From the IMG/VR virus record IMGVR_UViG_3300037488_001588, positions 1 through 60,234 of that record: a stretch of DNA of 60,234 bases, one strand, 5' to 3'. Below are positions 49-56,980 of the stretch, piece after piece. The translations under genes and the position numbers were made by a program. This stretch comes from a virus. Lineage: Duplodnaviria; Caudoviricetes. The notes beneath the pieces are model-generated. The model was not told where the DNA came from. It saw nothing but the letters and a program-made list of their open reading frames with translations, and made no database searches. Position 1 is the first letter of the stretch. The number at the start of each line of letters is the position of its first letter.

Positions 49-2298
49 CTACTTCTCTGGGGTCTTGACCAGCTTCAGGCCCGCCAACTGCGCCGCCGTG
101 AGCGTTGCGTTAAGATTTGGCAGCCAATAGCCGTTCCTGCCCTTGATCCGCGTCCGCTCGTGGCCGGCGAACTCTAGCGCGGCAGACAGGTCGGCGAAGG
201 CCTTCGGGCTGGACCTGACCGAGTACCGGTTCAGGACGTCGAGAGGCGACACATGCACCCAGCTGTCGCGGTCGGTGTTGCCGACCACGCGGACCGCGAT
301 GTCTTCCAGCGCATGCGACAGCTCGTTGGTGGCCTTGTGCCCTGCCGTGACCGTGGCATGCACCGCAGCCTCCGCAGGCGTCAGCCAGTGCTGCTCGTCG
401 ATCTCGGCGATCTCGGCCCACAGCTGCTGGAGCTCGATGTCGTGCTCGGGCTCACACCTCGCCACCGCCAGCGGCAGGAACCGCGTCTCACCCGTCTGGT
501 CGACCAAGAAGCCCTCCGGGTTGACCGTGGCGCCGAACGACGTCGTGCGTGGGCAGACGCTTTCGGTTCTGTCGTACGGCATGCGGTAGGTGTCGACCGT
601 GGTCGAAAGGAAATTGCGGAGCGCCGCCATGTCGGCCTTGCGGTAGATCGAGTCCAGCTCGCCCAGCTCCGTGATCGGCGTCCTCGTCGCCTTCTTCACC
701 ACGTCCCTCTCGTTCGGGCTGTCGAGGCGCAGGGACGCCCCGATCGTCACCCAGCCGGGCGGCAGGAGGGCGTTGAACCAGCGGCTCTTGCCGATGTTCT
801 GCGCCCCTTGCAGGGTCAGGCACATGCGCAGCTGCTCGGGGTCGGTCAGGCGGTAATTGTACCAGCCGGTGACGCACTGGATGCACCACCGCCTTATCGC
901 CATGTCACGCCAGCCATTGAGGGCCGGATCTCGCATGACGACAGTATCGTACAGCTCCTGAAGGCGCGACTTGCCGTCCCACTCGACGGCCTCGACCCAC
1001 TCGACAACAGGGCTGTATTTGTCGTTCTGGGCGACCGCGACGAGGGTCGCCCTGATCGCCTCCTTGTCTCTCATACCGCACCGAACGGCGGCATGGTGGA
1101 GCACGTCCAGAACATCTCCCGACGTGAGGTCTCCCTCGTACCCCCGAAGGGTGGCCTCGATCTGCTGCGAGATCGTGTTCAAGCGAACCACGAGCCCGAT
1201 CGCGTCCATGACATGCTCGACACGCGACGCCGTGGTGGCCTGCCTCATGTTCACAGCGTCTGCAGGCGTCCGGTCGGCGTCGGGGAGGTCACCCGGCCAC
1301 AGCTCGATCTCCCTGATGTGGGCCGCCAGACGCCCTGCGAGCCTCGTAGGAGCGATCCCGTTCTGGGTGGGCCTCGGGGCCGGCTCGGGCGGGAGAAGGG
1401 CTCTGGCGGGCGCCAGAGCCGCCGCCAGCGCCGCGATCGCGGCCGGCTGGATGTGGGCGTCGTCGAACGTGCCGGTCGAGACGGCGAACGCCCGCAGATC
1501 GGCCGTGGTCAGGTCTTGGCAGTGCGCGTGCAGGCACTTGAAGCCACCCGGGTTGCCGGGGTGGTACCCTGTGCCGTGCTCCGTGTCGCCTGTGTGCTGG
1601 TCCTGCTGCGGGCAGACCACCTCGTACCATCCGCTCGGGCTGGGCCCCGATCGGACACGCCCCTGCTCCTGCTGCCAGTCATACAGCGGATCGGACTTGC
1701 CGGGTGGCAGGGGAGGCGGCAGGGAGCCCATCTCTCTAGCCTCGCCGACCGTGACGCCGAGACCTGTTGCCAGCTCCGTCCAGCTGTACGTGACGTCCCA
1801 GCTCTCCTCTTCGAGGACGGCCTCGAACGGGCGCTCGTACTTGTGGTTGATCGAGCCGGGCACCCTCATGATCCGATCGGCCCGGATCGCGCCGGGGTCG
1901 GTGAGGCCTGCCGCCGCGATCGCCTCCATGAGGGCGGCGAACTGGCCGGGTTCGATCGGGTAGCTGAGCTTGAACCCCCACTGCTGGTTGCCGGGCGACG
2001 TGCGCAGCTTGTAGGTCGGCTTCAGCTTGATCAGGTCAGGGTCGACCTTTGTGCCGATGTCGTCGAGCACGACCACCCAGCTCAGCACCAGATCTGCAGC
2101 CTTGCGCGAGAGGACGGTCTGGCGGGGGATGTTGGCGACGGTGCTGACGCAGAAGTAGAGATCGTCGTAGGGCTGGTCCCGACCCGGGCGCCAGCGCCGG
2201 CTCTCGAAGCCGTCCCCTTTCGACGCGGTGACCACCACGCCTTGTGTTGTCTGATTGACTTTATCGAAGATGTGCGAGAGAAAGTTGTCGAGCTTCAC
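49..2298 (-). CDS. Primase-helicase: RepB-like primase domain, Zn-finger, VirE/VapE-type P-loop helicase
   Basis: N-terminal VVLDDIGTK...TSPGNQQWG...RIMRVPGSINHK primase motifs; CPQQDQH...CLHAHC zinc site; Walker A LQGAQNIGKS, ELGELD, DTYRMPY, FLVDQTGETRF typical of the VirE family. Confidence 0.85.
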   Translation of the reverse strand: MKLDNFLSHIFDKVNQTTQGVVVTASKGDGFESRRWRPGRDQPYDDLYFCVSTVANIPRQTVLSRKAADLVLSWVVVLDDIGTKVDPDLIKLKPTYKLRTSPGNQQWGFKLSYPIEPGQFAALMEAIAAAGLTDPGAIRADRIMRVPGSINHKYERPFEAVLEEESWDVTYSWTELATGLGVTVGEAREMGSLPPPLPPGKSDPLYDWQQEQGRVRSGPSPSGWYEVVCPQQDQHTGDTEHGTGYHPGNPGGFKCLHAHCQDLTTADLRAFAVSTGTFDDAHIQPAAIAALAAALAPARALLPPEPAPRPTQNGIAPTRLAGRLAAHIREIELWPGDLPDADRTPADAVNMRQATTASRVEHVMDAIGLVVRLNTISQQIEATLRGYEGDLTSGDVLDVLHHAAVRCGMRDKEAIRATLVAVAQNDKYSPVVEWVEAVEWDGKSRLQELYDTVVMRDPALNGWRDMAIRRWCIQCVTGWYNYRLTDPEQLRMCLTLQGAQNIGKSRWFNALLPPGWVTIGASLRLDSPNERDVVKKATRTPITELGELDSIYRKADMAALRNFLSTTVDTYRMPYDRTESVCPRTTSFGATVNPEGFLVDQTGETRFLPLAVARCEPEHDIELQQLWAEIAEIDEQHWLTPAEAAVHATVTAGHKATNELSHALEDIAVRVVGNTDRDSWVHVSPLDVLNRYSVRSSPKAFADLSAALEFAGHERTRIKGRNGYWLPNLNATLTAAQLAGLKLVKTPEK

Positions 2299-2342
2299 TG
2301 TTGCCCCCGAGCAATGTTGTAGTTCGTTCCGTGGTAGGAACC

Positions 2343-2372
2343 AACGCCCCGGCGATCACTCGCCGGGGCGTT
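2343..2372 (-). promoter_or_regulatory. 13-bp leader hairpin upstream of the primase gene
   Basis: AACGCCCCGGCGA-GTGA-TCGCCGGGGCGTT on the minus strand, GNRA loop, no U-tract. Confidence 0.6.
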
Positions 2373-2376
2373 CTTC

Positions 2377-2405
2377 GTTCTAGCCTTGTGTCGATGTCAC
2401 GGCAA
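2377..2405 (-). promoter_or_regulatory. Sigma70-type promoter for the primase gene
   Basis: TTGCCG-N17-TAGAAC; the -10 context GCTAGAAC fits the Caulobacter-type GCTANAWC consensus. Confidence 0.55.
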
Positions 2406-2407
2406 CG

Positions 2408-2698
2408 TCACTTCGAGCGACGCTCCTTGAACACCTTCTCTGCCTCGATCAGCTTGTCGCGGATCGCGGTCTCGTCGTAGTCGACCATGATATCCCCGAC
2501 GGTACGCACGCCCTCGTCGTCCTTCCAGACGCGCGTTCCGAACTGGGCGTCGATCCCCACCCACACACGATCGCCAGCGGCGGCGACCCTTGCCCGGTAT
2601 CTGGTCGTGCTGTACTCATTGACGATCCGCTGCACGGCAGCGTTCGCAGCCGCCCGAACGGCTATGGTCGCAAGCAATTCTTCCTTCGTCGGCTTCAT
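2408..2698 (-). CDS. Hypothetical protein (MKPTKEELL...)
   Basis: ATG at 2698 with GGAG RBS; abuts upstream gene. Confidence 0.6.
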   Translation of the reverse strand: MKPTKEELLATIAVRAAANAAVQRIVNEYSTTRYRARVAAAGDRVWVGIDAQFGTRVWKDDEGVRTVGDIMVDYDETAIRDKLIEAEKVFKERRSK

Positions 2699-2700
2699 CG

Positions 2701-2994
2701 CTACGTCTCCTTCGCTGCGCGGACCAGCACCCTCGCCGTGCCGGTGAGTTTCACGACCTGCCACTCGTCGGGGCACGTACGACGCGCCTGTCCTTCGTCG
2801 TTGTAGGCCGTATAGGCCGTGCCTGTGGGATCAACGAGGAGCCACGTCATCACTTCGACGTCCTTGTAGCGCGGCAGCGCCGCGAGGTGCGCGCGCGCGG
2901 CGGCAATCACCACCTTAGCTCTCGGGCTGAGGTTCACACGTGTGTCGTAGACGTCAAGCGCCTCTTCCAGCTCCTGCGGGTCAATGTCGCTCAT
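2701..2994 (-). CDS. Hypothetical protein (MSDIDPQ...)
   Basis: ATGA overlap with upstream gene, AAGGAG RBS. Confidence 0.65.
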   Translation of the reverse strand: MSDIDPQELEEALDVYDTRVNLSPRAKVVIAAARAHLAALPRYKDVEVMTWLLVDPTGTAYTAYNDEGQARRTCPDEWQVVKLTGTARVLVRAAKET

Positions 2995-3260
2995 TTCTTT
3001 ATCTCCTTCGATGCTGCTGCGATCATGGCGGCCCAAATGTCCGGCAATTCACCATCGTCGTCGGTCATGCAGGTCATGCCCGCGTTGATCATCGCCTGCG
3101 TCGGCTCCACCGGCACCACCGCCATCCCTGATTTCTCTAGTAGGGCCAGCATGTATTCGGCCTGCTCGATAAACAGTTCCGAAAACTTTTCGTATTCGAC
3201 TTCCTCGAAAGAGGCTCCAGCCCTCGCCATCACCTCTATGATCTTGGCTCGGTCGCTCAT
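2991..3260 (-). CDS. Hypothetical protein, paralogue A (MSDRAKIIEVMAR...AVVPVEPT)
   Basis: 89-aa ORF, ATGA-coupled; shares N-terminus and VPVEPT motif with the next gene. Confidence 0.7.
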   Translation of the reverse strand: MSDRAKIIEVMARAGASFEEVEYEKFSELFIEQAEYMLALLEKSGMAVVPVEPTQAMINAGMTCMTDDDGELPDIWAAMIAAASKEIKK

Positions 3261-3619
3261 ATCTCCGTCTCCTTTTTATAATCTGGATCGTACAGGTCAG
3301 GCCTTTCGGTGGCGGCCATATGATCCTCCCCCTTGCGATACTCTCCTTTGTCGAGCCATTCCCGTATCGGCTCGATCATGTTCGCCGGCTCAAGCATGGC
3401 GTTCGTCGGCTCCACAGGCACCACCGCCAGCCCTTTGGCTTGGAGGTGGGATTCGTAGGCGGTGAGGGCGGCGGAGGCGTCCGACTCAAACAAGCGCCAC
3501 GTTTCATCAACATACGCGCGGATCTCATCTTCGCTCACATCGCCCACGATGTTGTCGTCAAGGCGACGGCGGCAAATTCCACGCGCCATCACCTCTATGA
3601 TCTTGGCTCGGTCGCTCAT
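3225..3619. repeat. 36-bp exact direct repeat at 3225-3260 and 3584-3619
   Basis: CGCCATCACCTCTATGATCTTGGCTCGGTCGCTCAT twice; encodes the shared N-termini. Confidence 0.95.
3257..3619 (-). CDS. Hypothetical protein, paralogue B (MSDRAKIIEVMAR...AVVPVEPT)
   Basis: Start reassigned to ATG 3619 (RBS, ATGA overlap). Confidence 0.7.
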   Translation of the reverse strand: MSDRAKIIEVMARGICRRRLDDNIVGDVSEDEIRAYVDETWRLFESDASAALTAYESHLQAKGLAVVPVEPTNAMLEPANMIEPIREWLDKGEYRKGEDHMAATERPDLYDPDYKKETEI

Positions 3620-3783
3620 CTCTCCGTTTCCTTCGATGCGTAGCAGCCGCCCGAGACAAGGAGGCGTCTCCTGTCGAGCTGCAAGGTCATGTCGGCGCGC
3701 GCGATCTCGCACGCCTCCTTGGTGTTGAACGGTATCGACGTCATGGGCGCCGTCGTCGCCACCCACATGATCAGGATCCACAT
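3616..3783 (-). CDS. Small protein with hydrophobic N-terminus and PFxTKxxCE motif
   Basis: MWILIMWVATTAP...PFNTKEACE...GGC; AAGGA RBS. Confidence 0.55.
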   Translation of the reverse strand: MWILIMWVATTAPMTSIPFNTKEACEIARADMTLQLDRRRLLVSGGCYASKETER

Positions 3784-3968
3784 GACAGCATCCTTTCGGC
3801 TGTGGCGACCCACCACGCCGTCGACAGACGGAGCCGATAGCGCGCATCGATCTTCCTTGCCACGCCGCGCAGCGCGTCGCGACGCAACTTGGACGTGGCG
3901 ACGCCGGCCTCCTTCCGCAGGCGCCCGATGACCTGTCTCAGGTGCAGGCTTCTGTCGATGCTGCTCAC
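3771..3968 (-). CDS. Small basic hypothetical protein
   Basis: GTG start overlapping upstream stop (GTGA), GAGGA RBS. Confidence 0.45.
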   Translation of the reverse strand: MSSIDRSLHLRQVIGRLRKEAGVATSKLRRDALRGVARKIDARYRLRLSTAWWVATAERMLSCGS

Positions 3969-4147
3969 CGCGTGTTCCTCATCAGCGCGCCGATCTCCTC
4001 GTCCTCGTTGAGGAGGTCGACGATGCGATCGGCGAAGACGCTGTCGTACACGCGGGCGAGGGGATCGCTCCCCGCTCCGGGTCCACGCTCGTGGATCTCG
4101 AACATGAGACCGGCCGCAAGCGTGGTCGTTTCCTTGTAGTACTTCAT
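3965..4147 (-). CDS. Hypothetical protein (MKYYKETTT...)
   Basis: TGATG coupling, GAGGAGGA RBS. Confidence 0.6.
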   Translation of the reverse strand: MKYYKETTTLAAGLMFEIHERGPGAGSDPLARVYDSVFADRIVDLLNEDEEIGALMRNTR

Positions 4148-4443
4148 CACCACTGATCCTCCTCGTTGTTATTGTCGTCCGGGTTAGCCGTAATCTGGGC
4201 AACCAAGTCGTCGGCCCACCGCTCTTCCTCCACGATGTCGACCACATCCTCCATCGGCATGGGCTCGACGAACAGGCCCTCGGCCATCTTGCGCAGTTCG
4301 GCCAAGGGCGCGCTGATGTCGATCGGCGAGAGAGGGCCGTCGCCGCCGATCTCGATGAGGATCGCCTGCCTCGGTATGGCGGTGAAGCCGTTCTGGCCTT
4401 CATAGAAGGCGCGTATGGCCACCTCGATGACGAGCGTTTTCAT
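4147..4443 (-). CDS. Acidic hypothetical protein (MKTLVIEV...)
   Basis: ATGA coupling, AAGGGG RBS. Confidence 0.6.
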   Translation of the reverse strand: MKTLVIEVAIRAFYEGQNGFTAIPRQAILIEIGGDGPLSPIDISAPLAELRKMAEGLFVEPMPMEDVVDIVEEERWADDLVAQITANPDDNNNEEDQW

Positions 4444-4751
4444 GTCGACCCCCTTGGAAACAGTATCTCGCCGGTCGTCGCCGCACGCGACACGACCCAG
4501 TTCACCGCGCCGACCAATGACTTGCACTGGTACGTGTAGCCGCCGCGCCACGCGCCGTGGGCGCAGTTGCCGGTGCGCTTGACGACACCGATCAGGCGCC
4601 TCTCGCGGCCGGGCGGCGTGCCGTAGACGTCGTAGCTGTGGATGCCGTCGAGCGTCTCACCGAAGTACGTGACCTCGAGCGCCGGCATGAGGCTCGCCTT
4701 GCGGGCGTAGCCGTGGAAGTGTGAGGGCTTGACCCCGTGTCGCGTGCCCAT
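4440..4751 (-). CDS. Hypothetical protein (MGTRHGVK...)
   Basis: GAGGAGAG RBS before ATG 4751. Confidence 0.55.
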   Translation of the reverse strand: MGTRHGVKPSHFHGYARKASLMPALEVTYFGETLDGIHSYDVYGTPPGRERRLIGVVKRTGNCAHGAWRGGYTYQCKSLVGAVNWVVSRAATTGEILFPRGST

Positions 4752-4773
4752 GGCACTCTCCTCTGAAAGGTGA

Positions 4774-4803
4774 CAGGCCGCCCGCTTCCCGGCGGGCGGC
4801 CTG
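4774..4803 (-). promoter_or_regulatory. 12-bp intergenic hairpin
   Basis: CAGGCCGCCCGC-CGGGAA-GCGGGCGGCCTG between DUF932 gene and next gene; weak U-tract. Confidence 0.5.
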
Positions 4804-4813
4804 CCTGTGTGGG

Positions 4814-5626
4814 TCAGGCCGAGACGACGGAGACCGGCTTGACTTCGGCCGCCAGCTCGCTGGCCGCCGCCCACAGCTTGGTGTTGAACGAGACGTCGGC
4901 AGCGAGGGTGCGGATGCCGGACACGGCGCGACGCTGGCCGTTGGCACCCTGCCCACGCATGCCGCCGACGGTCAGGTTCTCCTGCACGCGGTTGAAGACG
5001 TTCCAGAGGCTGGCATTCTCGTCGTTGTAGCGACGGGGGCGAAGCACCTGCGCCGGCTGGATGTCGATCGAGGTGCCTCGGATCTCAAGGGCCTTCTGGG
5101 CGAAGCGCGAGACCTGATCGAGGGACAGGACGATCTTCGACCAGTCGCGAGCGATCTCCAGCGTCTTGGGCAGCTGCGACTGGATCATCGCGATGCCGGT
5201 GTGCAGGCGATCGAGCTGGTGGGCACCGACGTGGCGTAGGTTCACATGGAAACCGCTCTCGGCGACCGTCATGCCGTTCAGGCAGACGAGGCGGAAGATG
5301 CCGGCCGACAGGCTGAAGCCGCTGGTGCGATCGTGGCTGTTGCGCAGGAGCACCTCGGGGACGAGGTCGCCCAGCTCGCGGTGGGGCTCGGCGCCGACCT
5401 TGCGCATGCGCAGCTCGTGGATCGCGTAGTTGCGACCCTCGACCGAGCGCTTGTAGCCCTCGCGGACCTTTGCCACCTCGAAGCCCATGACGCGCATGGC
5501 GCGCACGGCCTGATAGGTGGGGAGGTAGGCGTACTTGGCGGACACGTTGTCGGCCGCCTGCGTCGCGAACACTGAGGGCGCCTTGGCGCGGATGGCATCG
5601 TCGTTGAGGAAACCGTCGAACGGCAT
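4814..5626 (-). CDS. DUF932 family protein
   Basis: APSVFA...SAKYAYLPT, HELRMR, LRNSHDRTSGF.LSAGIFRLVCLNG, LWNVFNRVQENL, N.KLW motifs characteristic of DUF932. Confidence 0.85.
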   Translation of the reverse strand: MPFDGFLNDDAIRAKAPSVFATQAADNVSAKYAYLPTYQAVRAMRVMGFEVAKVREGYKRSVEGRNYAIHELRMRKVGAEPHRELGDLVPEVLLRNSHDRTSGFSLSAGIFRLVCLNGMTVAESGFHVNLRHVGAHQLDRLHTGIAMIQSQLPKTLEIARDWSKIVLSLDQVSRFAQKALEIRGTSIDIQPAQVLRPRRYNDENASLWNVFNRVQENLTVGGMRGQGANGQRRAVSGIRTLAADVSFNTKLWAAASELAAEVKPVSVVSA

Positions 5627-5648
5627 GGGAAGTCTCCGATTGGTAGGT

Positions 5649-5708
5649 GGCCTGTCTCATCAGGGACGGTAGGCCGTGTCCGTCCGACGCCCTCGCGGGC
5701 GTTTCGAC
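5649..5708 (-). ncRNA. Type II hammerhead ribozyme with loop I / 3'-tail pseudoknot
   Basis: GUC GAAA CGCCC-GCGA-GGGCG UC^ GGACGG-ACACGGCCUA-CCGUCC CUGAUGA GAC AGGCC: complete core, three perfect stems, GGCCU:AGGCC pseudoknot; predicted cut between 5686 and 5685. Confidence 0.93.
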
Positions 5709-5968
5709 TAGCTCAGCTGTTCGTAGAGGTTCACCGTGATCGTTTCGAGTTCGTCCTTGACCTTCTTCAAGGCGACCAGACGAGCCTGCATCTCGCGCGC
5801 GGCGGTCTCGGCGGCAGAAGAGCTGATCGTGTAGTAGTCCCGCCCGTGGCAAGTGATGTCACGAACTGCGGTGATGGCGTTCTCGATCGCGTCGAGGGCG
5901 GTCGCGTATTCCTTGAGAAGGACTTTGCCAGAGGTGCCGTTGCTGTGGATCTGGGGGAACTGGGTCAC
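5708..5968 (-). CDS. Hypothetical helical protein
   Basis: 86-aa ORF with GTG start preceded by the conserved leader. Confidence 0.7.
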   Translation of the reverse strand: MTQFPQIHSNGTSGKVLLKEYATALDAIENAITAVRDITCHGRDYYTISSSAAETAAREMQARLVALKKVKDELETITVNLYEQLS

Positions 5969-6015
5969 TGGGAAATCTCCGTTGCGGCCGGGTCAGGAGC
6001 GACCCGGTAATGATG

Positions 6016-6044
6016 CTTCTAAGGCCTCAGTACGGGACTGTCAA
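6016..6044 (-). promoter_or_regulatory. Sigma70-type early promoter
   Basis: TTGACA-N17-TAGAAG, followed by 5' hairpin CCGGGTC/GACCCGG. Confidence 0.7.
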
Positions 6045-6052
6045 CACCCCTC

Positions 6053-6373
6053 TCAGGCCGCGAGGGCGGACGTGTCGTGGATGTACTTGACCTCGGCGGA
6101 CCACGCAGGGTGGCAGACGAGATACAGCGACTTGTTGACGGGGCAGAGCTGGTTGCGCGCCCACGACGGGACCGGGCCGCCGGCCGCCACGACCGCCGCG
6201 AGGCGGCGCCCGTTCTCGTAGTTGATCTGGTGCGCCGTGGTCCACCGATCGTAGTCGGCGTCGAAGGCCTTGCCGGCGCGGTAGTCGGTCCAGCCGGCAT
6301 GCAGCCCGGCGGCGATCGGGTCGCGCATCGGGGTGCGGGCGTTGCGGTAGGTCTCGCGGCGGATGTTCTGCAT
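6053..6373 (-). CDS. Hypothetical protein (MQNIRRET...)
   Basis: ATG 6373 preceded by the conserved leader. Confidence 0.7.
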   Translation of the reverse strand: MQNIRRETYRNARTPMRDPIAAGLHAGWTDYRAGKAFDADYDRWTTAHQINYENGRRLAAVVAAGGPVPSWARNQLCPVNKSLYLVCHPAWSAEVKYIHDTSALAA

Positions 6374-6391
6374 GGGAAGTCTCCGTGGTAG

Positions 6392-6450
6392 TCCAGCGAG
6401 GTTGCTGGCGGATCGAGCCCCCGGAGGGGCTCTCACCGTAAGGAACCTCA
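6392..6450 (-). ncRNA. Unidentified structured intergenic RNA (two hairpins plus a long-range pairing)
   Basis: GAGGUU...CGG-UGA-GAGCCCC-UCCG-GGGGCUC-GAU-CCG-CCAGC-AACCUC-GCUGG; GAGGUU is complementary to loop AACCUC. Confidence 0.5.
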
Positions 6451-6663
6451 GAATTCGGTGGGGCGGTTGATCACCGCCTCGGCTTGACGGCGGGCCGCGA
6501 CCTCCTCGATCGTGGCCTCGCGGATGTCGACCAGATGCTCGGCCGGGTACAGGCTGTCGAAGCGCACGACGGCGTTGGTCAGGGCGTCCGCGACCATGAC
6601 GCGGCTGCGGTTCACGAGAGCGAAGCAGACGTTGGCGCGAGAGGTGAGGATGAAGGTGGCCAT
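6448..6663 (-). CDS. Hypothetical protein (MATFILTS...)
   Basis: ATG 6663 preceded by the conserved leader. Confidence 0.7.
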   Translation of the reverse strand: MATFILTSRANVCFALVNRSRVMVADALTNAVVRFDSLYPAEHLVDIREATIEEVAARRQAEAVINRPTEF

Positions 6664-6707
6664 TTGGGAAGTCTCCGTGGTAGGGCGGCACCAGCGCCGC
6701 CCGACAG

Positions 6708-6736
6708 TCATGCCATAGTAGCGCCAGTATCGTCAA
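6708..6736 (-). promoter_or_regulatory. Early promoter, TTGACGATACT type
   Basis: TTGACGATACTGGCGCTACTATGGCA, near-identical to the element at 7170-7204; A-tract upstream; -10 non-canonical. Confidence 0.5.
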
Positions 6737-6755
6737 GCGCCCTTTTTGCGGCGGA

Positions 6756-6953
6756 TCACGACACCACCTCGCAGTGCTCGGCCCAGACCCGGATCGTGCG
6801 CCCGCTCTTGTCGAGCTTCACGACGTGGACGTCGGACAGGTAGAAGCTGCCATCGGCAGCGCTCTGCCGCTTCGCCTCGGTCGTGCGGACGACCTCTCCG
6901 TAGCGGTCGCCGCGCATCCAGCGATCGGTGTAGGCGGGGATCTGGACCCTCAT
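6756..6953 (-). CDS. Hypothetical small beta-rich protein (MRVQIPAYTDRWMRGDRYG...)
   Basis: GAGGAG RBS before ATG 6953; alternative start 7001. Confidence 0.6.
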   Translation of the reverse strand: MRVQIPAYTDRWMRGDRYGEVVRTTEAKRQSAADGSFYLSDVHVVKLDKSGRTIRVWAEHCEVVS

Positions 6954-7003
6954 GACGTGCTCCTCTCGTACTGCTTGCGATACTTGGCCGGTGGTGCTCA
7001 TGA

Positions 7004-7147
7004 CTAGAAATTCCAGCACTTGGCGCCGTGCTCGGCCGCGATCTTGCGGGCCTCGCGCTTGCCGGCCACCGGGTAGACGGTGCCGCCGACCGGGCGGTTG
7101 CTGTCGGTGATGCGGACGGTCTTGTCGTTGCAGTAGTGGGCGTACAT
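7004..7147 (-). CDS. 47-aa hypothetical protein (MYAHYCND...)
   Basis: ATG 7147 preceded by a leader variant. Confidence 0.6.
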   Translation of the reverse strand: MYAHYCNDKTVRITDSNRPVGGTVYPVAGKREARKIAAEHGAKCWNF

Positions 7148-7169
7148 GGGAAGGTCTCCGTTGTTGGTC

Positions 7170-7204
7170 CGATACTTGTGCCATAGAGGCACAAGTATCG
7201 TCAA
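7170..7204 (-). promoter_or_regulatory. Early promoter embedded in a perfect 13-bp inverted repeat (operator or cruciform)
   Basis: CGATACTTGTGCC-ATAGA-GGCACAAGTATCG at 7170-7200, overlapping TTGACG (-35) on the minus strand. Confidence 0.65.
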
Positions 7205-7215
7205 CCCCCCTATTC

Positions 7216-8529
7216 TCACCTTCTGAGCGCCGCCCACAGCCCGTCCTGCGTCGCCGCCTTCTGGCCCATCTTGCTCACGATCAGGGGCTCGACCGTGTTC
7301 TTGGCCACCGGCTCGTAGCTGTAGCACTGTGCTGTCGCCTGATCGCGACGGGCGACGCGGCCAAGCATTTGCAGGTACAGCTCCATGTCGTCTGGGACAG
7401 ACCACCACGCGATCGTGTTTCCACCGTGCTGCATGTTGAGGCCGTGGCCCATCGAGGCAGGCGAGACCGGCAGGACCGGGATCTCTTTCCGGTTCCAGCG
7501 GGCGATCGTGTCCTCGTCGTTCTTCGAGCCTGCGCCGATGAACGGGATGCCCGGCCACCGCCTCTGCATCATCGCGAGCTGCTCGCGGTAATGGTATGCG
7601 ATCAGGAGCGGCTTGCCGTTCATTTCATCGACGATGTCGGCCAGCACGTTCAGGCGGAACGGGTCGAACTCCACAGGCTCGCCCCTGTTGTCGTAGACGA
7701 ACCCGCCCGACGAGATCTGCAGCAGCTTGTTGCGCAGGACGCCTGCGGAGCCCGCCACGATGTCATGGTCGCTCAGCGTACTCTCTGCCCTGAACCTCTC
7801 GTAGAGGGCCCGTACGGCCGGCGGGAGGGTCACCTCGATCGGCGTACGCACGACGGGCGGCAGCTCGACCGCGTCGTCCTCCAGAACGTAGGTGAAAGGC
7901 CTGATGATCTCGGCCAGCTCGGCAGGCGTGTCGCCGAACGGCATCCAGTTGTGCTCGTCTCGATCGATCGGATAGAAGTACTTCCGCAGCCACTTGTCGT
8001 GACTGCGTCCGAACATCGTGAGCCCGACCGCGTTCGCCATGCCGTACAGGCTCGTCAAACCGTTCGGCGCCGGGGTGCCGGTACCGCCCGCCCAGATCTT
8101 GAAGCCGGCCTTGCGGACCGCCTTCTGGCGCTTGCCGGTCGGACTGCGCAATTTGCTCAGCTCGTCCCAATAGCAGGCCTCGCATCGGTGCTTTGTCTGG
8201 AGGATCGCGGGCACCATGTCGTGGTTGACCAGCAGCACGTCCGTCTTGGCGTCGATCGCCGCCTGTCGCTTGGCAGGCGAGATCTCGCCCGTGCAGAGTG
8301 CCATGCTCAGCGGGATGCCCCACTTCTCGGCCTCCTGCCGCCAGACGTTATTGATGACGCGAAGAGGCGCGCCGATCATGACGCGCTTCACGATCTTCTG
8401 CTCGATCAATGCCTGCGCCGTCAGGAGGTACGTGAGTGTCTTGCCGGTGCCAGTGGCACTAAACAGCATGCTATGATCTCGTTCAAACATGAAGTCCGCC
8501 GCCTCATGTTGATAGCTGGCGGGCTTCAT
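7216..8529 (-). CDS. SNF2-like superfamily 2 helicase
   Basis: YQ Q-motif, TGTGKT Walker A, APLRV, WDELSKL, GTGTPAPNG, HGLNMQ, Q..GRVAR; start reassigned to ATG 8529. Confidence 0.9.
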   Translation of the reverse strand: MKPASYQHEAADFMFERDHSMLFSATGTGKTLTYLLTAQALIEQKIVKRVMIGAPLRVINNVWRQEAEKWGIPLSMALCTGEISPAKRQAAIDAKTDVLLVNHDMVPAILQTKHRCEACYWDELSKLRSPTGKRQKAVRKAGFKIWAGGTGTPAPNGLTSLYGMANAVGLTMFGRSHDKWLRKYFYPIDRDEHNWMPFGDTPAELAEIIRPFTYVLEDDAVELPPVVRTPIEVTLPPAVRALYERFRAESTLSDHDIVAGSAGVLRNKLLQISSGGFVYDNRGEPVEFDPFRLNVLADIVDEMNGKPLLIAYHYREQLAMMQRRWPGIPFIGAGSKNDEDTIARWNRKEIPVLPVSPASMGHGLNMQHGGNTIAWWSVPDDMELYLQMLGRVARRDQATAQCYSYEPVAKNTVEPLIVSKMGQKAATQDGLWAALRR

Positions 8530-8807
8530 GGCAGCAGCATGAGGTTCAGGATTGCGCTGAACTGCTCCCGGGTGCGGACCACGTAGTGGTCGTGACCCAT
8601 CTTCAGTATACGGGTCCGCCACACTTCCTGCAGCGGCTCCAGAGGCGCCTTCGGCGTCTTGAATTCGAGGAAGACGACCGCGTACGGCAGCAACAGGATA
8701 CGATCGGGCACGCCGGCATTGCCGGGGCTCACCCACTTCAACAAGTACCCGCCGGCCTTGGTCGTCTGCTCGCGGCACCACTTCTCCAGATCAGCTTCGT
8801 ATGCCAT
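8526..8807 (-). CDS. VRR-NUC domain nuclease
   Basis: E.DLEK, KWVSPGNAGVPDRI, FLEFK.P, PLQ motifs. Confidence 0.9.
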   Translation of the reverse strand: MAYEADLEKWCREQTTKAGGYLLKWVSPGNAGVPDRILLLPYAVVFLEFKTPKAPLEPLQEVWRTRILKMGHDHYVVRTREQFSAILNLMLLP

Positions 8808-8809
8808 AC

Positions 8810-8859
8810 TTGACCCTCTGTTGTGCTTGAGATATATCCCGGTCTTCCGCAGCGTTCAA
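8810..8859. promoter_or_regulatory. Overlapping divergent promoters sharing a palindromic -10
   Basis: Plus strand TTGACC(8810)-N17-TATATC(8833); minus strand TTGAAC(8859)-N17-TATATC(8836); both use GATATATC at 8831-8838. Confidence 0.65.
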
Positions 8860-8874
8860 TGGAGTTTCAGCATC

Positions 8875-9054
8875 ATGGCAAGCCGTCTGGCCAAAGGCAC
8901 CAAGACCACGCGGGTACCGTCACAGGTGCCGGATGCGTGGTTGAAGGTGATCAACAAGGCCGCCGCGATCCGCAACATCAGCCGTTCGCAGTACATGTCG
9001 ACCGTAGCGTACGAGCAGGCCCAGCTGGACGTGGCCAAGGCCGCGAAGGGCTAG
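8875..9054 (+). CDS. Ribbon-helix-helix DNA-binding protein
   Basis: TTRVPSQVPDAWLKVINKAAAIRNISRSQYM: beta-helix-turn-SRS-helix pattern; GGAG RBS. Confidence 0.7.
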   Translation: MASRLAKGTKTTRVPSQVPDAWLKVINKAAAIRNISRSQYMSTVAYEQAQLDVAKAAKG

Positions 9055-9063
9055 CGTCGGCCG

Positions 9064-9246
9064 ATGGCGACGAAGAAGACCCGGCCGGCGATGAACGGCT
9101 ACGGCAGCATGTTCAGGGGCCGGCACGAGCCCGCCGAGCCCGCGAGCAAGGTACGAGTGCTGAAGGGCGCGGAGTTCGAGAGACGCAAGCGAGAGCTGGA
9201 AGAACGTATCGACAAACCAAAACCGAAAAACGAAATCAACTTCTGA
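9064..9246 (+). CDS. Hypothetical protein
   Basis: 60-aa ORF filling the gap in the operon. Confidence 0.55.
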   Translation: MATKKTRPAMNGYGSMFRGRHEPAEPASKVRVLKGAEFERRKRELEERIDKPKPKNEINF

Positions 9247-13661: not shown

Positions 13662-15248
13662 CTAGGAAATCGCCCCGTCAGACTCGGTGACGCGCATGTA
13701 CACCGTCCCCGCGCCCAATGTGGCAGCGTTGAGCGTCAGAACGGAGCCGATAGTGAGCGCCGCAGTCGATACATTCTGATACGCGCCGATGACACGAAAC
13801 GGGCCTCCGTGCTGGGCATTGTTGGTGAAGTAGAAAGTTGCAGTGTTTAGCGTTGATGCGTCGACAGTCGCCGTCAAAGTACTACTGGTGTTCTGCCCGA
13901 TGAGATAAGGAATATCGACTTCGATAGTCAAAATCGAGGTGGATAGACGGGGGGTGTAGGAGAAGCTGAACGGGAATGCCCCGATAGCCTTCATCGTGAT
14001 GTAGGCGGGGTTCAGCGCAACGGGCGCGCCGCTCGCGCGCTGGTAAGCGTAACACACCCAAGTTCCGCCACCCGACGAAACCAATATCGCGGTGTCGCCC
14101 GCCTGCGTCTGGATGTTGTTGCCGCCGTTTGGCAACCCAAGAACGCCGCTCTGAACAAGCGTCAAAGAGCCGCCAAAGTACACTATCCGCGTCGCGCCGA
14201 ATGCAATACTGTCAAACGCATTGATCGTCGTCGTCCCGGTGATATCAATATTGTTCGCGGGGGCTGCGCCGATTGCAGTCGTCGAAGCGCTCGCCACCGC
14301 CGCTTTGGTCCCGTTGATCGCGGCGCCCGTCATGGTGAGCGTGCTGCTGAGCGTGGCCCCGGCAGCCGTCAGCAGCCCGGTGGTCGTGAGGGCGTTCGTC
14401 GTCTTGTTGAACACCAGACCGGCGTCACCGCCAAACGCACCCGCATCGTTGAACTGGACCTGAGTGGTCGAGCCGCCCGGCACGGTGCCGACAGACGCCG
14501 TCGTCTGCGTCGTGTTGTCGGGGAACTTGATGCCGCCTGCCGTCGTGTAGATGACGCCCGCCACCGTCAGCAGCTCGGCGCCCAGTGTGGCCGTCCCGAT
14601 GCCCACCTTTGTGCCGCTCAGATAGAGGTTGTTCGAGCCGATGTTCACGCCGTTCGGGATCGCCATCGTGCCGGCGTTCACGGTGATGGCATCGCCTACA
14701 GCGTCTCCGAGCACCGTGGTGCCGGTCACGCTCAAGCCCGTGGTCGTGACGGTCGTGCCGTTGAAGACGAGGTTGGCGGAGCCCGCGAGCACGCCCGCGT
14801 TGTTGTACTGGATCTGGGTTGTCGACCCCGCCGCCACGGGAGACGTGTTGATGGCGAGGAACATGCCCGTCGCGGTGCCGTCGCACGTCACCAACGTGTT
14901 CTGCGCCGCCGGGATCGTGACAGCTGCGCCGCCGGCCAGACTGTCCATGGTGACCGCGAAGCCGCCGACCGTATCGTTGCGTGCGACCCAGAGACCGCCG
15001 ACGGCCGACGGCACGCGGTAATTGATGGCCGCCGTGGGCGTGCCGGTGAAGACGATCTTGAGGGGCTGGTACTGCGCCGTGACGAGCGTCACGTTGCCCG
15101 ACAAGCCCGTCGTGTTGATGCTCACCGATCCGCCGAGCGCGAGGTCGATGATGGCCCAGTCGTTGTTGACCGGGACGTCCCACGTATCGACGTAGTCGTT
15201 GAATGCCGGCTGTTCGATGCGCTTATTGGCGGTGTACGTCGAAACCAT
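13662..15248 (-). CDS. Tail fibre / virion structural protein
   Basis: 528 aa, Thr/Gly-rich; N-terminal STYT...E.PA.......W....N virion-attachment-type motif; two GSTTQ.Q.N.AG repeats; GGIKFPDNTTQTTA. Confidence 0.7.
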   Translation of the reverse strand: MVSTYTANKRIEQPAFNDYVDTWDVPVNNDWAIIDLALGGSVSINTTGLSGNVTLVTAQYQPLKIVFTGTPTAAINYRVPSAVGGLWVARNDTVGGFAVTMDSLAGGAAVTIPAAQNTLVTCDGTATGMFLAINTSPVAAGSTTQIQYNNAGVLAGSANLVFNGTTVTTTGLSVTGTTVLGDAVGDAITVNAGTMAIPNGVNIGSNNLYLSGTKVGIGTATLGAELLTVAGVIYTTAGGIKFPDNTTQTTASVGTVPGGSTTQVQFNDAGAFGGDAGLVFNKTTNALTTTGLLTAAGATLSSTLTMTGAAINGTKAAVASASTTAIGAAPANNIDITGTTTINAFDSIAFGATRIVYFGGSLTLVQSGVLGLPNGGNNIQTQAGDTAILVSSGGGTWVCYAYQRASGAPVALNPAYITMKAIGAFPFSFSYTPRLSTSILTIEVDIPYLIGQNTSSTLTATVDASTLNTATFYFTNNAQHGGPFRVIGAYQNVSTAALTIGSVLTLNAATLGAGTVYMRVTESDGAIS

Positions 15249-18200
15249 CAGATTGCCTCATGAGCAACGGCAAGGGCCTTGGCGACGGTCGCGTCAGGCA
15301 CGTTCAGGAACTGCTTTGTCTTCTCGCCGTGCGCGTTCTTGGCGCGCGCCGCGAAGCGGACGTACTTTGCGGCCTCGGCCGCGTGGTCGATCAGGTTCGT
15401 GAGACGCCCGCCGGACGCGCGTGTCTTGCGATCGTCGTCGGGCTGTTCGGCGCGCAGGGGTGCCAGAAGCGGGGCGAGCGCGGCGATGTTCGGCTTGCCC
15501 TCGTTGGTGATGGCACGCTCCAGAAGGGCCTTGCCCTTGACGGGATCGGCCATCGCCTCGGAGAGGATACGCTGCACACGCTTCTGGGCAGCGGCGCGCA
15601 TGGGGCCGCCCACCGCCTTGTCGAGCACGAGGCCCGTGGCGCCGAGAATGGATGCCCAGTTGCCGCTGAAGAGCGCGTGGCCGATGGTCGGCATGAAGAA
15701 CGCCGTCCATGTCATGTTGTCGATGTTGCCCTTCGTCATGTCGTCGAGCATGCCGTTGATCTTCGACGCGGTATCGGACCCGGTCGAGGCCGCCTTCCGG
15801 GTGGCGTGCTGTACGCCCCGATCGATGTCGTCCCCGAGCTTGGTCAGCGTGCCGTAGCCCTCGTCGCCGTAGAGCCTGCGCAGCGTCGTCTCGCGCTGCT
15901 GGATGAAGGGCGACATCTTGGGCGACAGGTTGCGCACACCCTGATCGCCGATCGCGACGTTGGAGAACTTGTTGACCAGCCACTCTGCCGTGGCGCGCCG
16001 CGCGCCTTCGAGCGCCGCAGGATCACCGCCGATGTCGTCGAGCAGGCGACCGACGCGCGTCGCACTGTCCTTCGAGTTCATGATGGCGCCTATTTCGCGC
16101 CCGAGATCTTCGGCGTTGTTGTACTTCAGGAAGTTGCCGGCATTGCCCTCGAAATCTCGAACCTTGCCGGCCTCGTCCTTTACGGTCTGCGCGACCGTCG
16201 AGGTGTGCTCCCGCTCGGCGTCGCGGATCGAAGCATCACGATCGCGGCCGGCCTGTCGCACGCCCGTGGTCTGCGCGCGCGAGGCGTCTTCGAGCGCCTG
16301 CGTTGCGGTGGCGACATCGTCGAAGCGGTTGGAGAAGCCGGGAGACAGCTCGTCGATACGGGCCAGAGCCGGGGCGTGGTCTCGCTTCCACGCCGCCAGA
16401 CGCTGCGGTGTGAGGCCGTCCTTGGCCGCGTCCACCAGAGATGCCGACGCGAGATCCTGTATGATGGGCAGCGCCTGCGGATCGTCACCGGCAGCCTTCA
16501 ACCACGCATTGAGGCTCTCGGCGCCCTCTGCACCCTTCTTGAAGATGCTGGCCGCGACGCGCGCGCCGGACTTCTTGAAGTCGCCCGCGAAGCCTGTCGT
16601 CTTCAAAGCGTCGCCGACGGGCCCTTGTCGGAAGGTCGTGACGCGATCGATGTGACGTTGCTTTGCGGCGTTGTATCGTTCGAGATCCTCGGGTGTAAAA
16701 TTCGGTACTCGTTCATCACCCGGGCGTACTCCGGATCCTCCTTCGCCTTCAGCTCCAGCCTGACGAGAAACCCCGGCCGCGCCCACGGAGGCATCGTTTC
16801 CAGCGTTCGCACGAGAGCTTGCCCGTGCGTTAGCCATATGCTCCCGTGCTTCGGCTGCAAGTTTCGCTCCTATGGTGTCTTCGACACGCATTGTACCAGC
16901 TTCGACACGCCGAGCCTCGTGCGCAATCTGGTTCTCCAGAGAATTGCGCAGCTCGGCTTGCACGAGATCCTTGAGCGCGACCAGCTGGCCGTGCGCGGTG
17001 CGATCGGTGTTTTTGAAGTCGGCCATTTTGGCCGTGATGGTCTTGTCCATCTTGGCCAGCGCACCGAACGATACGACAGGCGGCAGCGCCGCCACCATCT
17101 CGATGATGGGCTGGGCGCCGGTCTTGAGTTCAACCGACGGGTCGAAATTCTGCAGCAGCTCCCGAGCGCCGGCAGCGGCGTTGCCCGACACGACGTTGAG
17201 CTGGTTGTCAGGATCGACGGCGTTGTAGAGGCGCGTCACCTCGCCTCCGAGAGCCGTGTCTCGTGTGTCGGTGATATCGCGCATGGCGTCGCCTCGCGCC
17301 GAGCGATCGATGCCGGTCGGCAGGGGGCGCTGGTCGACGGCGTCCTGTGCCGTGCGAACGCCGGCTTCGAGGTTGGCCTGCGTCTGGTCGAAAGCCTGAT
17401 TGGCGCCCTGCACTTTGCCGTCGCGTGCCTTGGCAGCGGCGGCCTGTGCGTCGGCTGTTTCGAGCGCGAGACGGCTGTGCAGATCATTGAGCTGGGCGAC
17501 GTAGGCGTCGGCGATCGCCTTGGGGCTGGCCGCAGGATCCGCCATCGTGTTGAGAGCGGCGTGTCGGGCGGCCTGCTGCTCGCCACGGATGGCGTGCGTC
17601 TCAGCCGCGAAGCCCTTGTCGCGCATCTCCAGCTCGGCCTCGGCCTTGGCGAGCTTGGTATCGCCGGCCGCCTCGGCGGTCGTCATGCGCGTGCCGAGTT
17701 CGTTCGTCGTGCGCATGCCGCGCACCTTGTCGACGTCGCCGACGTTCTCCTTGAATACTGCGCCGGCCTTGTCCTGTCGGCTGTTCTCGAAAACGGAGGG
17801 GAAGCGCTTCGACGCGGCGTTGCCGGCGGCTCCGGCCGCTCCGGCCGCGAAGGGCGCGGCGATCATGCCGTACAGAGGGTCGCCCGTGGCATCGGTCACC
17901 GCCGACGCGGCACCGCCGCCGACGGCACCGGCCGCCATGAGCTTCGGAGAGGCGCCTGACTTCAGCACCGTCTTGGCGAGGTCGACGGCGGGCTTTGTTG
18001 CCACGCCGGCACCCTTCGTGACACCGGCCCTCATGCCGCCGCCGGGCGCGATCATGCTGATGCCGGCCTCGCCCGCATCCATGGCGTACCGTCCGAGTTT
18101 CGACTGCGGCTCGTACTCACCTGTCGTCTTGGCGATCTTCGACGAGATGTCGTGCCCGCTCGGCATGACGTCTGTGCTGGGGATGATGCTGAGCGCCTTG

Positions 18201-18550
18201 CCTACGATGCCGCTCTCGCGCTCGGCGCGCTTCTTGAACGCCTTGCCGCGAGCTTCCTGCACCTCCGGCGTATCGCCCGTGATGCCCTGCATCAGCCGCC
18301 GGCCAAGGTACTGCCCGCTCTCGCGCAGATCGCCGACCATGCCGGGGATGTGTGACAGGCCCTTGATGATCGTGGTCGGGATAGCCTTTGCGGTAGACGA
18401 AACCCAATCGTCGTCGGGCGCGTTGTCGAGAACACCGCGTGCCTGCGGAGGACCGGACTGCGGACCGGACGACAGGTCGAGCGCGGGCGTGTCGCTCGCC
18501 GGGGCCGGCGGTGTCGTGAAGGAGCTTAGGTCGATCTTATCGTCGGCCAT
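15248..18550 (-). CDS. Large internal virion (DNA ejection) protein
   Basis: 1100 aa, Ala-rich helical with Gly-zipper and hydrophobic segments; follows the SLT-bearing protein as in podovirus ejectosome operons. Confidence 0.65.
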   Translation of the reverse strand: MADDKIDLSSFTTPPAPASDTPALDLSSGPQSGPPQARGVLDNAPDDDWVSSTAKAIPTTIIKGLSHIPGMVGDLRESGQYLGRRLMQGITGDTPEVQEARGKAFKKRAERESGIVGKALSIIPSTDVMPSGHDISSKIAKTTGEYEPQSKLGRYAMDAGEAGISMIAPGGGMRAGVTKGAGVATKPAVDLAKTVLKSGASPKLMAAGAVGGGAASAVTDATGDPLYGMIAAPFAAGAAGAAGNAASKRFPSVFENSRQDKAGAVFKENVGDVDKVRGMRTTNELGTRMTTAEAAGDTKLAKAEAELEMRDKGFAAETHAIRGEQQAARHAALNTMADPAASPKAIADAYVAQLNDLHSRLALETADAQAAAAKARDGKVQGANQAFDQTQANLEAGVRTAQDAVDQRPLPTGIDRSARGDAMRDITDTRDTALGGEVTRLYNAVDPDNQLNVVSGNAAAGARELLQNFDPSVELKTGAQPIIEMVAALPPVVSFGALAKMDKTITAKMADFKNTDRTAHGQLVALKDLVQAELRNSLENQIAHEARRVEAGTMRVEDTIGAKLAAEAREHMANARASSRANAGNDASVGAAGVSRQAGAEGEGGSGVRPGDERVPNFTPEDLERYNAAKQRHIDRVTTFRQGPVGDALKTTGFAGDFKKSGARVAASIFKKGAEGAESLNAWLKAAGDDPQALPIIQDLASASLVDAAKDGLTPQRLAAWKRDHAPALARIDELSPGFSNRFDDVATATQALEDASRAQTTGVRQAGRDRDASIRDAEREHTSTVAQTVKDEAGKVRDFEGNAGNFLKYNNAEDLGREIGAIMNSKDSATRVGRLLDDIGGDPAALEGARRATAEWLVNKFSNVAIGDQGVRNLSPKMSPFIQQRETTLRRLYGDEGYGTLTKLGDDIDRGVQHATRKAASTGSDTASKINGMLDDMTKGNIDNMTWTAFFMPTIGHALFSGNWASILGATGLVLDKAVGGPMRAAAQKRVQRILSEAMADPVKGKALLERAITNEGKPNIAALAPLLAPLRAEQPDDDRKTRASGGRLTNLIDHAAEAAKYVRFAARAKNAHGEKTKQFLNVPDATVAKALAVAHEAI

Positions 18551-18551
18551 C

Positions 18552-56528: not shown

Positions 56529-56659
56529 GCGCCACTATGGCGCTGGCCGCGCCGGGGCGCAAGGGGGAGAGGTCGATGAAGCTCGCCTGCCATTTCGTTG
56601 GCCACGGGCTGAAACCCGAAAAATATCCCGTGTTCTTTCGCGCCTCTCAGGTCGGGTTG

Positions 56660-56980
56660 TCACCCCTTCTTGCGTGTCTTCTTGGCCGGCGGCGGCGGGG
56701 GCGGCGGCGGCGGCGGCGGCTCGATCGTCTGCCAGTTACCGCCCTTGTCGAGACGCTGCCGGCGCACGGTCGCGCCCTCCGTGATGATCTTGGTGTCGCC
56801 GTAGATCTCGGTGACACGACCGCCTGTGGCCTGCGCGGCGTCGCTACGGGGTTCGGCGCGCGCAGCTTTCCAGCCGGCCTCGAAGATGGCGAAGCCCTCG
56901 CTGTCGGGTATGAAGCTCATAGAACCGGCGCCTTCTGACGTCTCGCACCATTTGTTGAACGCCTGCCTTGCTAGTGTCAT
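56660..56980 (-). CDS. Hypothetical protein with poly-Pro tail
   Basis: GAGGAG RBS before ATG 56980; FEAGWKAA motif; run of 11 Pro. Confidence 0.6.
   Translation of the reverse strand: MTLARQAFNKWCETSEGAGSMSFIPDSEGFAIFEAGWKAARAEPRSDAAQATGGRVTEIYGDTKIITEGATVRRQRLDKGGNWQTIEPPPPPPPPPPPAKKTRKKG

Follow-up and report, generated by a model that had tools for sequence, protein, structure and literature searches.

A previously uncatalogued pseudoknot RNA module between the cistrons of phage small-gene operons, found in the same slots as type II hammerhead ribozymes

The small self-cleaving ribozyme classes are few, and the latest of them were found by looking near hammerheads; those held in Rfam 15 include twister, twister-sister, pistol, hatchet and HDV-like ribozymes. 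The RAGATH motifs, pistol, hatchet and twister-sister were reportedly found by Weinberg et al. in 2015 in the neighbourhood of genes associated with hammerhead or twister ribozymes. In the early genes of phage T7, RNase III sites lie between successive cistrons, and the upstream mRNA keeps a protective 3' hairpin after the cut. Repeated elements are also known next to genes: start-associated sequences with extended inverted repeats in the Cluster K mycobacteriophages, PeSL cassettes in T4-type phages and REP elements in bacteria. Perreault et al. (2011, PMC3088659) describe hammerheads that flank single genes in prophages and propose processing into gene-length mRNAs, and the strategy of searching near ribozyme-associated genes is set out in a further paper (PMC5737381).

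The family described here is a previously uncatalogued, conserved RNA module of ~60 nt, situated between the cistrons of co-directional small-gene operons. The window, that is, the whole stretch of DNA analysed, is a complete phage record of 60,234 nt, and the module lies in a run of co-directional genes on its minus strand (Table 1). The 71-aa product encoded directly upstream (P0001) matched no Pfam or PHROG family and has one relative, P0002, which is 82% identical and is encoded on a 61-kb contig; the 5' strand of the pseudoknot begins with the last two bases of the UGA stop codon of the 71-aa ORF. The 106-aa product encoded downstream (P0003) likewise matched no Pfam or PHROG family, and 78 representatives of its own family were found at E<=0.001. 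The leader between the module and the 106-aa gene, with its AUG, occurs in two exact copies, and degenerate forms stand ahead of three other genes; a single base, A6392, separates it from hairpin B.

Table 1. Positions of the pseudoknot RNA, its parts and its surroundings in the window
Feature	Position	Strand	Remarks
Genes for VRR-NUC nuclease, SNF2 helicase, orphan ORFs of 47-106 aa, DUF932 protein and primase-like protein	~8800-2300	-	
Second exact copy of the 19-nt leader	6665..6683	-	direct repeat with 6373-6391
71-aa ORF (P0001), orphan, upstream of the pseudoknot RNA	6448..6663	-	UGA stop 6450-6448
Pseudoknot 5' strand, GAGGUU	6444..6449	-	purine-rich, Shine-Dalgarno-like; pairs with loop 6398-6403
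Linker, CCUUA	6439..6443	-	family consensus N-Y-U-R-A
P1, CGG/CCG	6438-6436 / 6411-6409	-	
P1, internal loop and hairpin A together	6409..6438	-	-21.5 kcal/mol
Symmetric internal loop, UGA/GAU	6435-6433 / 6414-6412	-	possible U.U and tandem sheared G.A
Hairpin A, GAGCCCC-UCCG-GGGGCUC	6432-6415	-	variable
Hairpin B, CCAGC-AACCUC-GCUGG	6393..6408	-	-8.3 kcal/mol; adjoins P1 without spacer
Hairpin B loop, pseudoknot 3' strand	6398-6403	-	
Leader CUACCACGGAGACUUCCC	6391-6374	-	GGAG at 6384-6381; AUG at 6373-6371
106-aa ORF (P0003), downstream of the pseudoknot RNA	6053..6373	-	protein family of ~100 aa, function not known
Type II hammerhead ribozyme (Hammerhead_II)	5646-5709	-	38.5 bits against a gathering score of 37

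A preliminary description of this DNA, made from its letters, had written out the module as two abutting hairpins, the loop of the second being complementary to a 5' strand at the upstream stop codon. The string that it gave is present base for base on the minus strand (6392-6450), and all 6 nt of the hairpin B loop are Watson-Crick complementary to GAGGUU. The 91 nt from 6370 to 6460 have a minimum free energy (MFE) of -35.5 kcal/mol (z = -2.48; a value reached by 3 of 200 shuffles), and their centroid fold consists of the two abutting hairpins; such single-sequence folding, modestly above chance, is only suggestive. The RNA at 6393-6449 is nevertheless a conserved structured RNA, pseudoknot included, and it is accepted as real because its relatives covary in all four helices, which is decisive beyond the folding of a single sequence. 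In the MFE structure of the window, GAGGUUCC, composed of the 5' strand and two linker bases, pairs with the leader GGA-ACUUC and not with the hairpin loop. This pairing of GAGGUUCC with GGAGACUUC would mask part of the ribosome-binding site, and it has no conserved counterpart in the other copies.

The general anatomy of the family is as follows. A purine-rich strand of 5-7 nt, at or next to the upstream stop codon, is followed by a 5-nt linker (N-Y-U-R-A) and by a 3-bp helix, mostly CGG/CCG, which encloses the UGA/GAU loop and a hairpin of free sequence. An abutting 5-bp hairpin, mostly CCAGC/GCUGG, closes the module, and its loop pairs with the 5' strand, which makes the fold an H-type pseudoknot. 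Beyond it lies a short leader, unstructured, in which the next gene has its ribosome-binding site.

The relatives were collected by three IUPAC scans of IMG/VR built on the conserved bases, together with a covariance model (R1). At E<=0.001 the family amounts to 27 copies, scoring 26-84 bits, from 14 sources; 17 contigs carry at least one copy when near-identical contigs are counted, and two further contigs (G017 and G018) carry the hairpin-A part alone. False positives had been removed before counting, namely L011, L012, L017, L018, L026, L027 and L028 from scan 1 and most matches of scan 3, including ~20 loci of one conserved coding region (the L106 group; open frame), while an antisense match (L066:13968-14034) was removed by a stricter cut-off. 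Moreover, a four-sequence alignment of the 106-aa family pulled the metagenome contig L010, which holds two more copies, one directly after the 106-aa homologue, and so on the opposite side of it from the window copy, and one after the next gene. In the latter the hairpin-A stem is entirely different, and the loop-tail pair is different yet complementary. In G007 (13972-19655, L066) the module forms an array over 5.7 kb, ten copies at E<=0.001 each standing after one of a succession of small genes; their pseudoknot is nearly constant (GGAAGC/GCUUCC, once GAAAGC/GCUUUC) and their hairpin-A stems differ.

The carriers belong to at least six phage lineages, with G+C contents from 53% to 66%, and can be arranged as group A (G000, G001, L010 and G014), group B (G007, G004 and perhaps G013), group C (G008 with its near-copies, G010 and G012) and others (G005; G011; G015/G016). 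What these lineages share is almost limited to the DNA polymerase, at ~25% identity, and a few small genes adjoining the copies. Several searches defined the reach of the family from outside. No relatives were obtained from locus searches in IMG/VR with single proteins (106-aa, 71-aa and SNF2); the 8-sequence alignment A3, and A1 in metagenomes, recovered nothing, and A4 in genome_contigs gave 3 weak loci in which the motif is absent. Scanning for the exact 18-nt leader returned two loci: L004, a relative with two leaders and no module upstream, and L005, rejected as a chance match within a gene. By blastn no member was found among 50,697 deposited phage records, the 18-33-nt chance matches falling mostly inside genes. 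Among 401 genomes of the class of G054, the pattern gave 4 matches with no convincing hairpin A or pseudoknot, three of which score 23.2, 17.9 and 10.2 bits, the fourth being unmatched by the model. The 23.2-bit match, in a bacterial genome (G282:C1:2275782-2275830; L176:1488-1551), has the conserved flanks, a poor hairpin A and no evident pseudoknot, and is either a decayed prophage copy or chance.

The covariation among these homologues supports all four helices of the fold first put forward in the preliminary description, the pseudoknot included. Pairs were counted on the alignment A8, which was fitted to the nested helices of the model, the pseudoknot brackets being absent from the model and added afterwards; ten of the aligned copies come from G007 and are not independent. 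In A8, 97.8% of 492 cells are paired and 14 of the 20 pairs show changes on both sides, none of 500 shuffles reaches any of five measures, and pairing falls to 26-48% when the partners are slid by 1-3 columns. Both-side changes affect five of the six pairs of the pseudoknot helix (94.2% of cells paired), all six counted pairs of hairpin A, two of the five of hairpin B and one of the three of P1, whose first pair is C-G in 23 copies, U-A in 2 and G-C in 1. Variants of the hairpin B stem are few: CCAGU/AUUGG, CCAAC/GUUGG and, in L111, a 6-bp CCAGUG/CACUGG. A MAFFT alignment of 17 unique copies, fitted to no structure, gives the same covariation picture. Thus, the loop-tail helix and hairpin B are both kept by compensatory change, as in an H-type pseudoknot.

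Apart from the helices, some unpaired bases are near-invariant: U12 and A14 of the linker (the U in 27 of 27 copies, the A in 26), the UGA and GAU of the internal loop and the CCA after P1. This conservation is partly built in, since the search patterns fixed many of the 'invariant' bases; its support therefore comes from the copies found without pattern constraint, in which these bases are for the most part retained. The CCA might suggest a tRNA-like RNA or a substrate of RNase P, a reading set aside because the base before the CCA covaries with the first base of P1. Divergent copies indicate which parts can be separated. In G007:14256 the loop is UAG/UCU instead of UGA/GAU, and in G004:15896 a plain 12-bp hairpin stands without P1, hairpin B being kept and the pseudoknot perfect. 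The hairpin-A part occurs alone, as NGG-UGA-stem-GAU-CCN, in L089:992-1019 (G011) and in L141 and L167 (G017/G018); one such copy lies directly before a ribosome-binding site, and another at a convergent junction of genes, at the 3' end of one of them. Finally, the 3' strand of hairpin B is absent from L122/L130, so that the loop-tail pairing becomes the base of one long hairpin.

According to the preliminary description, the module occupies the same slot as a hammerhead of the operon, and this placement holds: the type II hammerhead of the window, located between the 86-aa gene and the DUF932 gene, two genes downstream of the pseudoknot RNA, starts inside the stop codon of the former and ends just short of a similar leader, which the AUG of the latter follows. 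Its core is intact (CGAAAC...GUC...CUGAUGAG). In G000, L010, G007, G004 (two), G017 (two) and G018, Hammerhead_II ribozymes with intact cores occupy neighbouring slots of the same strand. That of L010 lies ahead of a DUF932 gene, that of G007 (21967-22032) follows the ten-copy array, and the slots of G004 hold, in order, a motif variant, the motif and two hammerheads. At E<=0.01, Hammerhead_II was present in five of 15 motif records (two of the five above the gathering score) and in none of 35 controls, these being viral records that the same patterns had matched by chance. The association has ~p = 0.001 in a one-sided Fisher's test done by hand and is weaker when counted by lineage (three lineages); by contig, a hammerhead occurs on 6 of ~19 carriers. 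No Rfam family reached the gathering score in G001, G005, G008 and G010-G015, and no family other than the hammerhead reached it in the carriers scanned; the other small self-cleaving classes did not reach it in any of 13 carrier sources.

Type II hammerheads in prophage operons and the new module have much in common: a slot reaching from the upstream stop codon to shortly before the next ribosome-binding site, the same strand and operons, arrays that flank single small genes, a length of ~60 nt, two free-sequence hairpins and a loop-tail pseudoknot. They differ in that the module has neither the CUGANGA/GAAA core nor the three-way junction nor a match in Rfam, its cleavage being putative, and in that its pseudoknot joins the loop of the 3' hairpin to the 5' tail, whereas type II hammerheads join loop I to the 3' tail.

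The module shares further features with the RAGATH motifs, pistol, hatchet and twister-sister, all of them small conserved RNAs near hammerheads, and it too recurs in such neighbourhoods (five of 15 records against none of 35; also L010). Like the RAGATH motifs, it combines a pseudoknot with conserved junction bases and comes mainly from phage and metagenome DNA; unlike them, it matches no Rfam 15 model, RAGATH-6 and RAGATH-18 included. The novelty supposed in the preliminary description withstood a cmscan of 5400-7400, where nothing matched 6392-6450 at E<=10 and only the hammerhead at 5646-5709 and a weak plus-strand Scr1601 match elsewhere were returned. The other small self-cleaving classes of Rfam 15 gave no match at E<=10. 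A full-text search of open-access papers and preprints found no description of such a motif; it could be an undeposited RAGATH candidate, perhaps one included in the supplements of Weinberg et al. (2015 and 2017).

Several known identities were considered and rejected. As for the hammerhead (Rfam clan CL00010), the UGA/GAU bases surround one hairpin, with no CUGANGA or GAAA. The topologies of HDV, pistol, twister and attC were rejected by reasoning from their consensus structures, the strand order of the module (5' strand, hairpin, helix-2 5' strand, 3' strand, helix-2 3' strand) being, by such reasoning, unlike that of pistol, twister and HDV. Compared with integron attC sites, which have conserved core and inverse-core sites at the hairpin base and lie next to an integron integrase, the base helix of the module is free in sequence, purine-rich on its 5' side and pyrimidine-rich on its 3' side. 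An intrinsic terminator was rejected after a scan of 2200-9200 that placed no terminator-like site at 6392-6450, where hairpin A is followed by GAUCCGCCAGC.

With no Rfam match, and with the same slots as hammerheads in barely related phages, the motif may be a new RNA-cutting or gene-boundary device. The reading that we put first, though tentatively, is that of a cis-acting mRNA element for gene boundaries or processing. The module would act in cis on the polycistronic mRNA, with the role that type II hammerheads have in these slots. A cut in the module or next to it would leave the upstream message with the stable hairpin A as its 3' end and would give the downstream message a 5' end formed by hairpin B, immediately before the leader. 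Such products would have the layout of hammerhead products and that of the units of promoter, 5' hairpin and leader found elsewhere in the operon. Self-cleavage and cutting by a conserved host RNase are given roughly equal weight. Since hardly any proteins are common to the carrier phages, the module is unlikely to depend on a phage protein dedicated to it, and we infer that it works in cis on the mRNA without one.

A parallel for a host RNase is provided by the T7 early region, whose RNase III sites are also repeated, related, irregular hairpins with internal loops between cistrons, each of about two helical turns. The modelled anatomy, with 3 bp, 3 non-canonical pairs and 7-10 bp, would fit an RNase III site, and these helices are possibly stacked on the 6-bp pseudoknot helix. 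The T7 sites, in contrast, are long, plain hairpins that have neither a pseudoknot nor a second hairpin adjoining them, whereas the module keeps its sequence across phages sharing almost no proteins; its cleavage by RNase III is putative.

As to cleavage by the RNA itself, it is possible, if doubtful, that the module represents a new class of small self-cleaving ribozyme, built as an H-type pseudoknot with tandem G.A pairs in its internal loop and a conserved U-R-A in its linker; it would be used interchangeably with type II hammerheads and would cut operon transcripts into hairpin-capped, gene-length mRNAs. The conserved bases and the company of hammerheads argue for one integrated catalytic core; the separable modules and the copies without the internal loop argue against it. 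Furthermore, the overlap with the stop codon, the Shine-Dalgarno-like 5' strand and the mini-ORF of G014 point towards the ribosome rather than towards cleavage.

These last features are those expected of a translation-coupled switch, which we regard as an unlikely explanation of the module. Here, the terminating ribosome would melt the pseudoknot and toggle the RNA between the form with pseudoknot or long hairpin and a form with hairpin B only, setting initiation at the next gene, so that the toggle would provide coupling or deliberate uncoupling of that gene. The melting would be obligatory because the 5' strand lies in or right after the stop codon. Every copy is on the sense strand relative to its flanking genes. 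Of 20 copies examined, 13 (14 with L010a, placed by eye) have an upstream stop codon whose first base is 0-4 nt from the first aligned column, so that it overlaps or abuts the 5' strand, and in two more the stop is the URA of the linker. By reading, most copies have the start codon of the next gene ~10-25 nt beyond hairpin B, and this interval contains a purine-rich ribosome-binding site. The hammerheads share both the overlap with the stop codon and the spacing to the next AUG, and since they show the same geometry it may only reflect tight packing.

The 5' strands are also purine-rich (fraction 0.74) and Shine-Dalgarno-like above background: their mean duplex energy with the anti-Shine-Dalgarno motif is -4.3 kcal/mol, against -1.4 for background 11-mers, and 67% of them, against 14% of the 11-mers, reach -4 or lower. 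This likeness may stem from UAG-G or UGA-GG contexts and from purine richness, and the G007 copies that contribute to it are not independent. In G014 (L115, 17463-17535, minus strand), a promoter-like TTGACA site is followed by a 4-codon ORF (M-T-E-G) that has a strong AGGAGG site and a UGA adjoining the 5' strand of the pseudoknot. This ORF may serve to deliver ribosomes, or a deletion may have left it behind. The idea that a mini-ORF starting at GUG crosses the module was rejected: the distance from GUG to GAU is 22, 22, 26 and 27 nt in four copies, which keeps no reading frame.

In the nested variant L122/L130 the GGAG of the next gene follows the 3' strand of the helix without a gap, and in the window the long hairpin with the loop-tail pairing and the two-hairpin form with hairpin B, the pseudoknot being left out of the calculation, are isoenergetic (-29.6 and -29.8 kcal/mol). 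Both facts suit a switch. The preliminary description proposed a switch opened by terminating ribosomes; the specific form of this idea, in which the helix opened masks the ribosome-binding site, did not prove general, however: that site adjoins a helix only in L122/L130 and is mostly unpaired, and the MFE pairing is not conserved. In nested-fold ensembles the mean pairing probability of the Shine-Dalgarno window ranges from 0.09 to 0.74 in the 20 copies and is <0.4 in 14 of them, with windows set by hand and four offsets off by one or two bases. Moreover, a pure switch needs neither hairpin A nor the conserved CGG-UGA...GAU-CCG-CCA bases, and at a convergent gene end the copies made of hairpin A only have no downstream gene to regulate.

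Lower still in probability stands an insulator or stabiliser that is not cleaved, whose fold would block exonucleases and RNase E entry and keep the upstream coding sequence off the next ribosome-binding site. The fold is very stable, at -29.8 kcal/mol with the pseudoknot left out, the leader after it is mostly unpaired, and its separable modules fit a role for each hairpin alone. In Pseudomonas phage Rollin, which shares the 47-aa gene (79% DNA identity over 97 nt), the slots after that gene carry plain GC hairpins with a different conserved leader (ACCCGGAG...CCAUG). Such a structural role leaves unexplained why unpaired bases, P1 and hairpin B keep their sequences across lineages of 53-66% G+C, why a pseudoknot is selected over two hairpins and why hammerheads are associated.

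The conserved leader ahead of start codons, with a repeated stem-loop upstream, is a likeness with the start-associated sequences, PeSL cassettes and REP elements, as is the flanking of small genes by repeats that mediate gain and loss; REP hairpins near stop codons affect the upstream gene. Those elements are lineage-specific hairpins, unlike the module, with its covarying pseudoknot, conserved internal-loop bases, spread over at least six lineages and association with ribozymes. An instance of gene loss is seen in a public Logan contig (run X1; 467 nt, depth 3.4), which joins 6372 to 6665 and thereby lacks the 292 nt (6373-6664) that carry the module, the gene for the 71-aa product and one of the two leader copies. 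The deletion lies between the 19-nt direct repeats, and the contig also has one G>A change at 6338. The share of query words in this run is 0.07 and the deletion form consists of one contig; it is probably real, because the 19-nt junction repeat is shorter than the word used by the assembler. As far as one contig goes, the repeated leader adjoining the module would thus mediate the loss of a gene cassette, which accounts for local genome plasticity.

That the module itself is a DNA-level element, a repeated cassette boundary which, folded as single-stranded DNA in the manner of REP or attC, would serve the recombination or mobility of small genes, is very improbable: the exact 292-nt loss, the L010 module that follows the 106-aa homologue where that of the window precedes the 106-aa gene, the small genes adjoining copies in otherwise unrelated phages and the cassette-like arrays would favour it, but the deletion ends in the leader repeats and not in the module, the copies are always on the sense strand of their flanking genes, the helices contain G-U pairs, the antisense strand scores much lower with the model (13-19 bits, as against 47-84), and by reading no attC-type core sites are seen in the module sequences.

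The small number of self-cleaving classes gives the module its interest, as it presents the traits by which the latest were found, that is, hammerhead neighbourhoods, a pseudoknot backed by covariation, conserved junction bases and occurrence in barely related phages. If it does not cleave, it would still be a widespread and portable gene-boundary signal of phage operons, which the ribosome or a host RNase could read. In both cases it is relevant to the processing and insulation of polycistronic messages by phages, and it could serve as a compact part for operon design.

Some further observations concern the operon and the rest of the record. A promoter-like repeat, TTGACG-N13-TATGGCA, is present on the minus strand in two exact copies (6711-6736 and 7179-7204), each followed by a hairpin and the conserved leader; at least two matches also arise in 20 of 100 shuffles, and a promoter scan found no promoter at these repeats, whose spacing is off the sigma-70 consensus. 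A variant, TTGACA...TAGAAG, stands ahead of the 86-aa gene (~6000-6050, minus strand) and, in G001, ahead of the DUF932 gene. In group A the slots may instead carry a promoter-like site with hairpin and leader, or be empty. The 47-aa gene of the window (7004-7147, minus strand) belongs to phrog_20574 (E 2e-11). Over the whole window Rfam 15 recognises two families only, the type II hammerhead and the Rhizobiales sRNA Atu_At1 (RF02496); the latter is a full-length match at 56561-56672 on the minus strand, with 72.5 bits against a gathering score of 60, and its presence in a phage genome hints at a Rhizobiales host or at a captured host sRNA.
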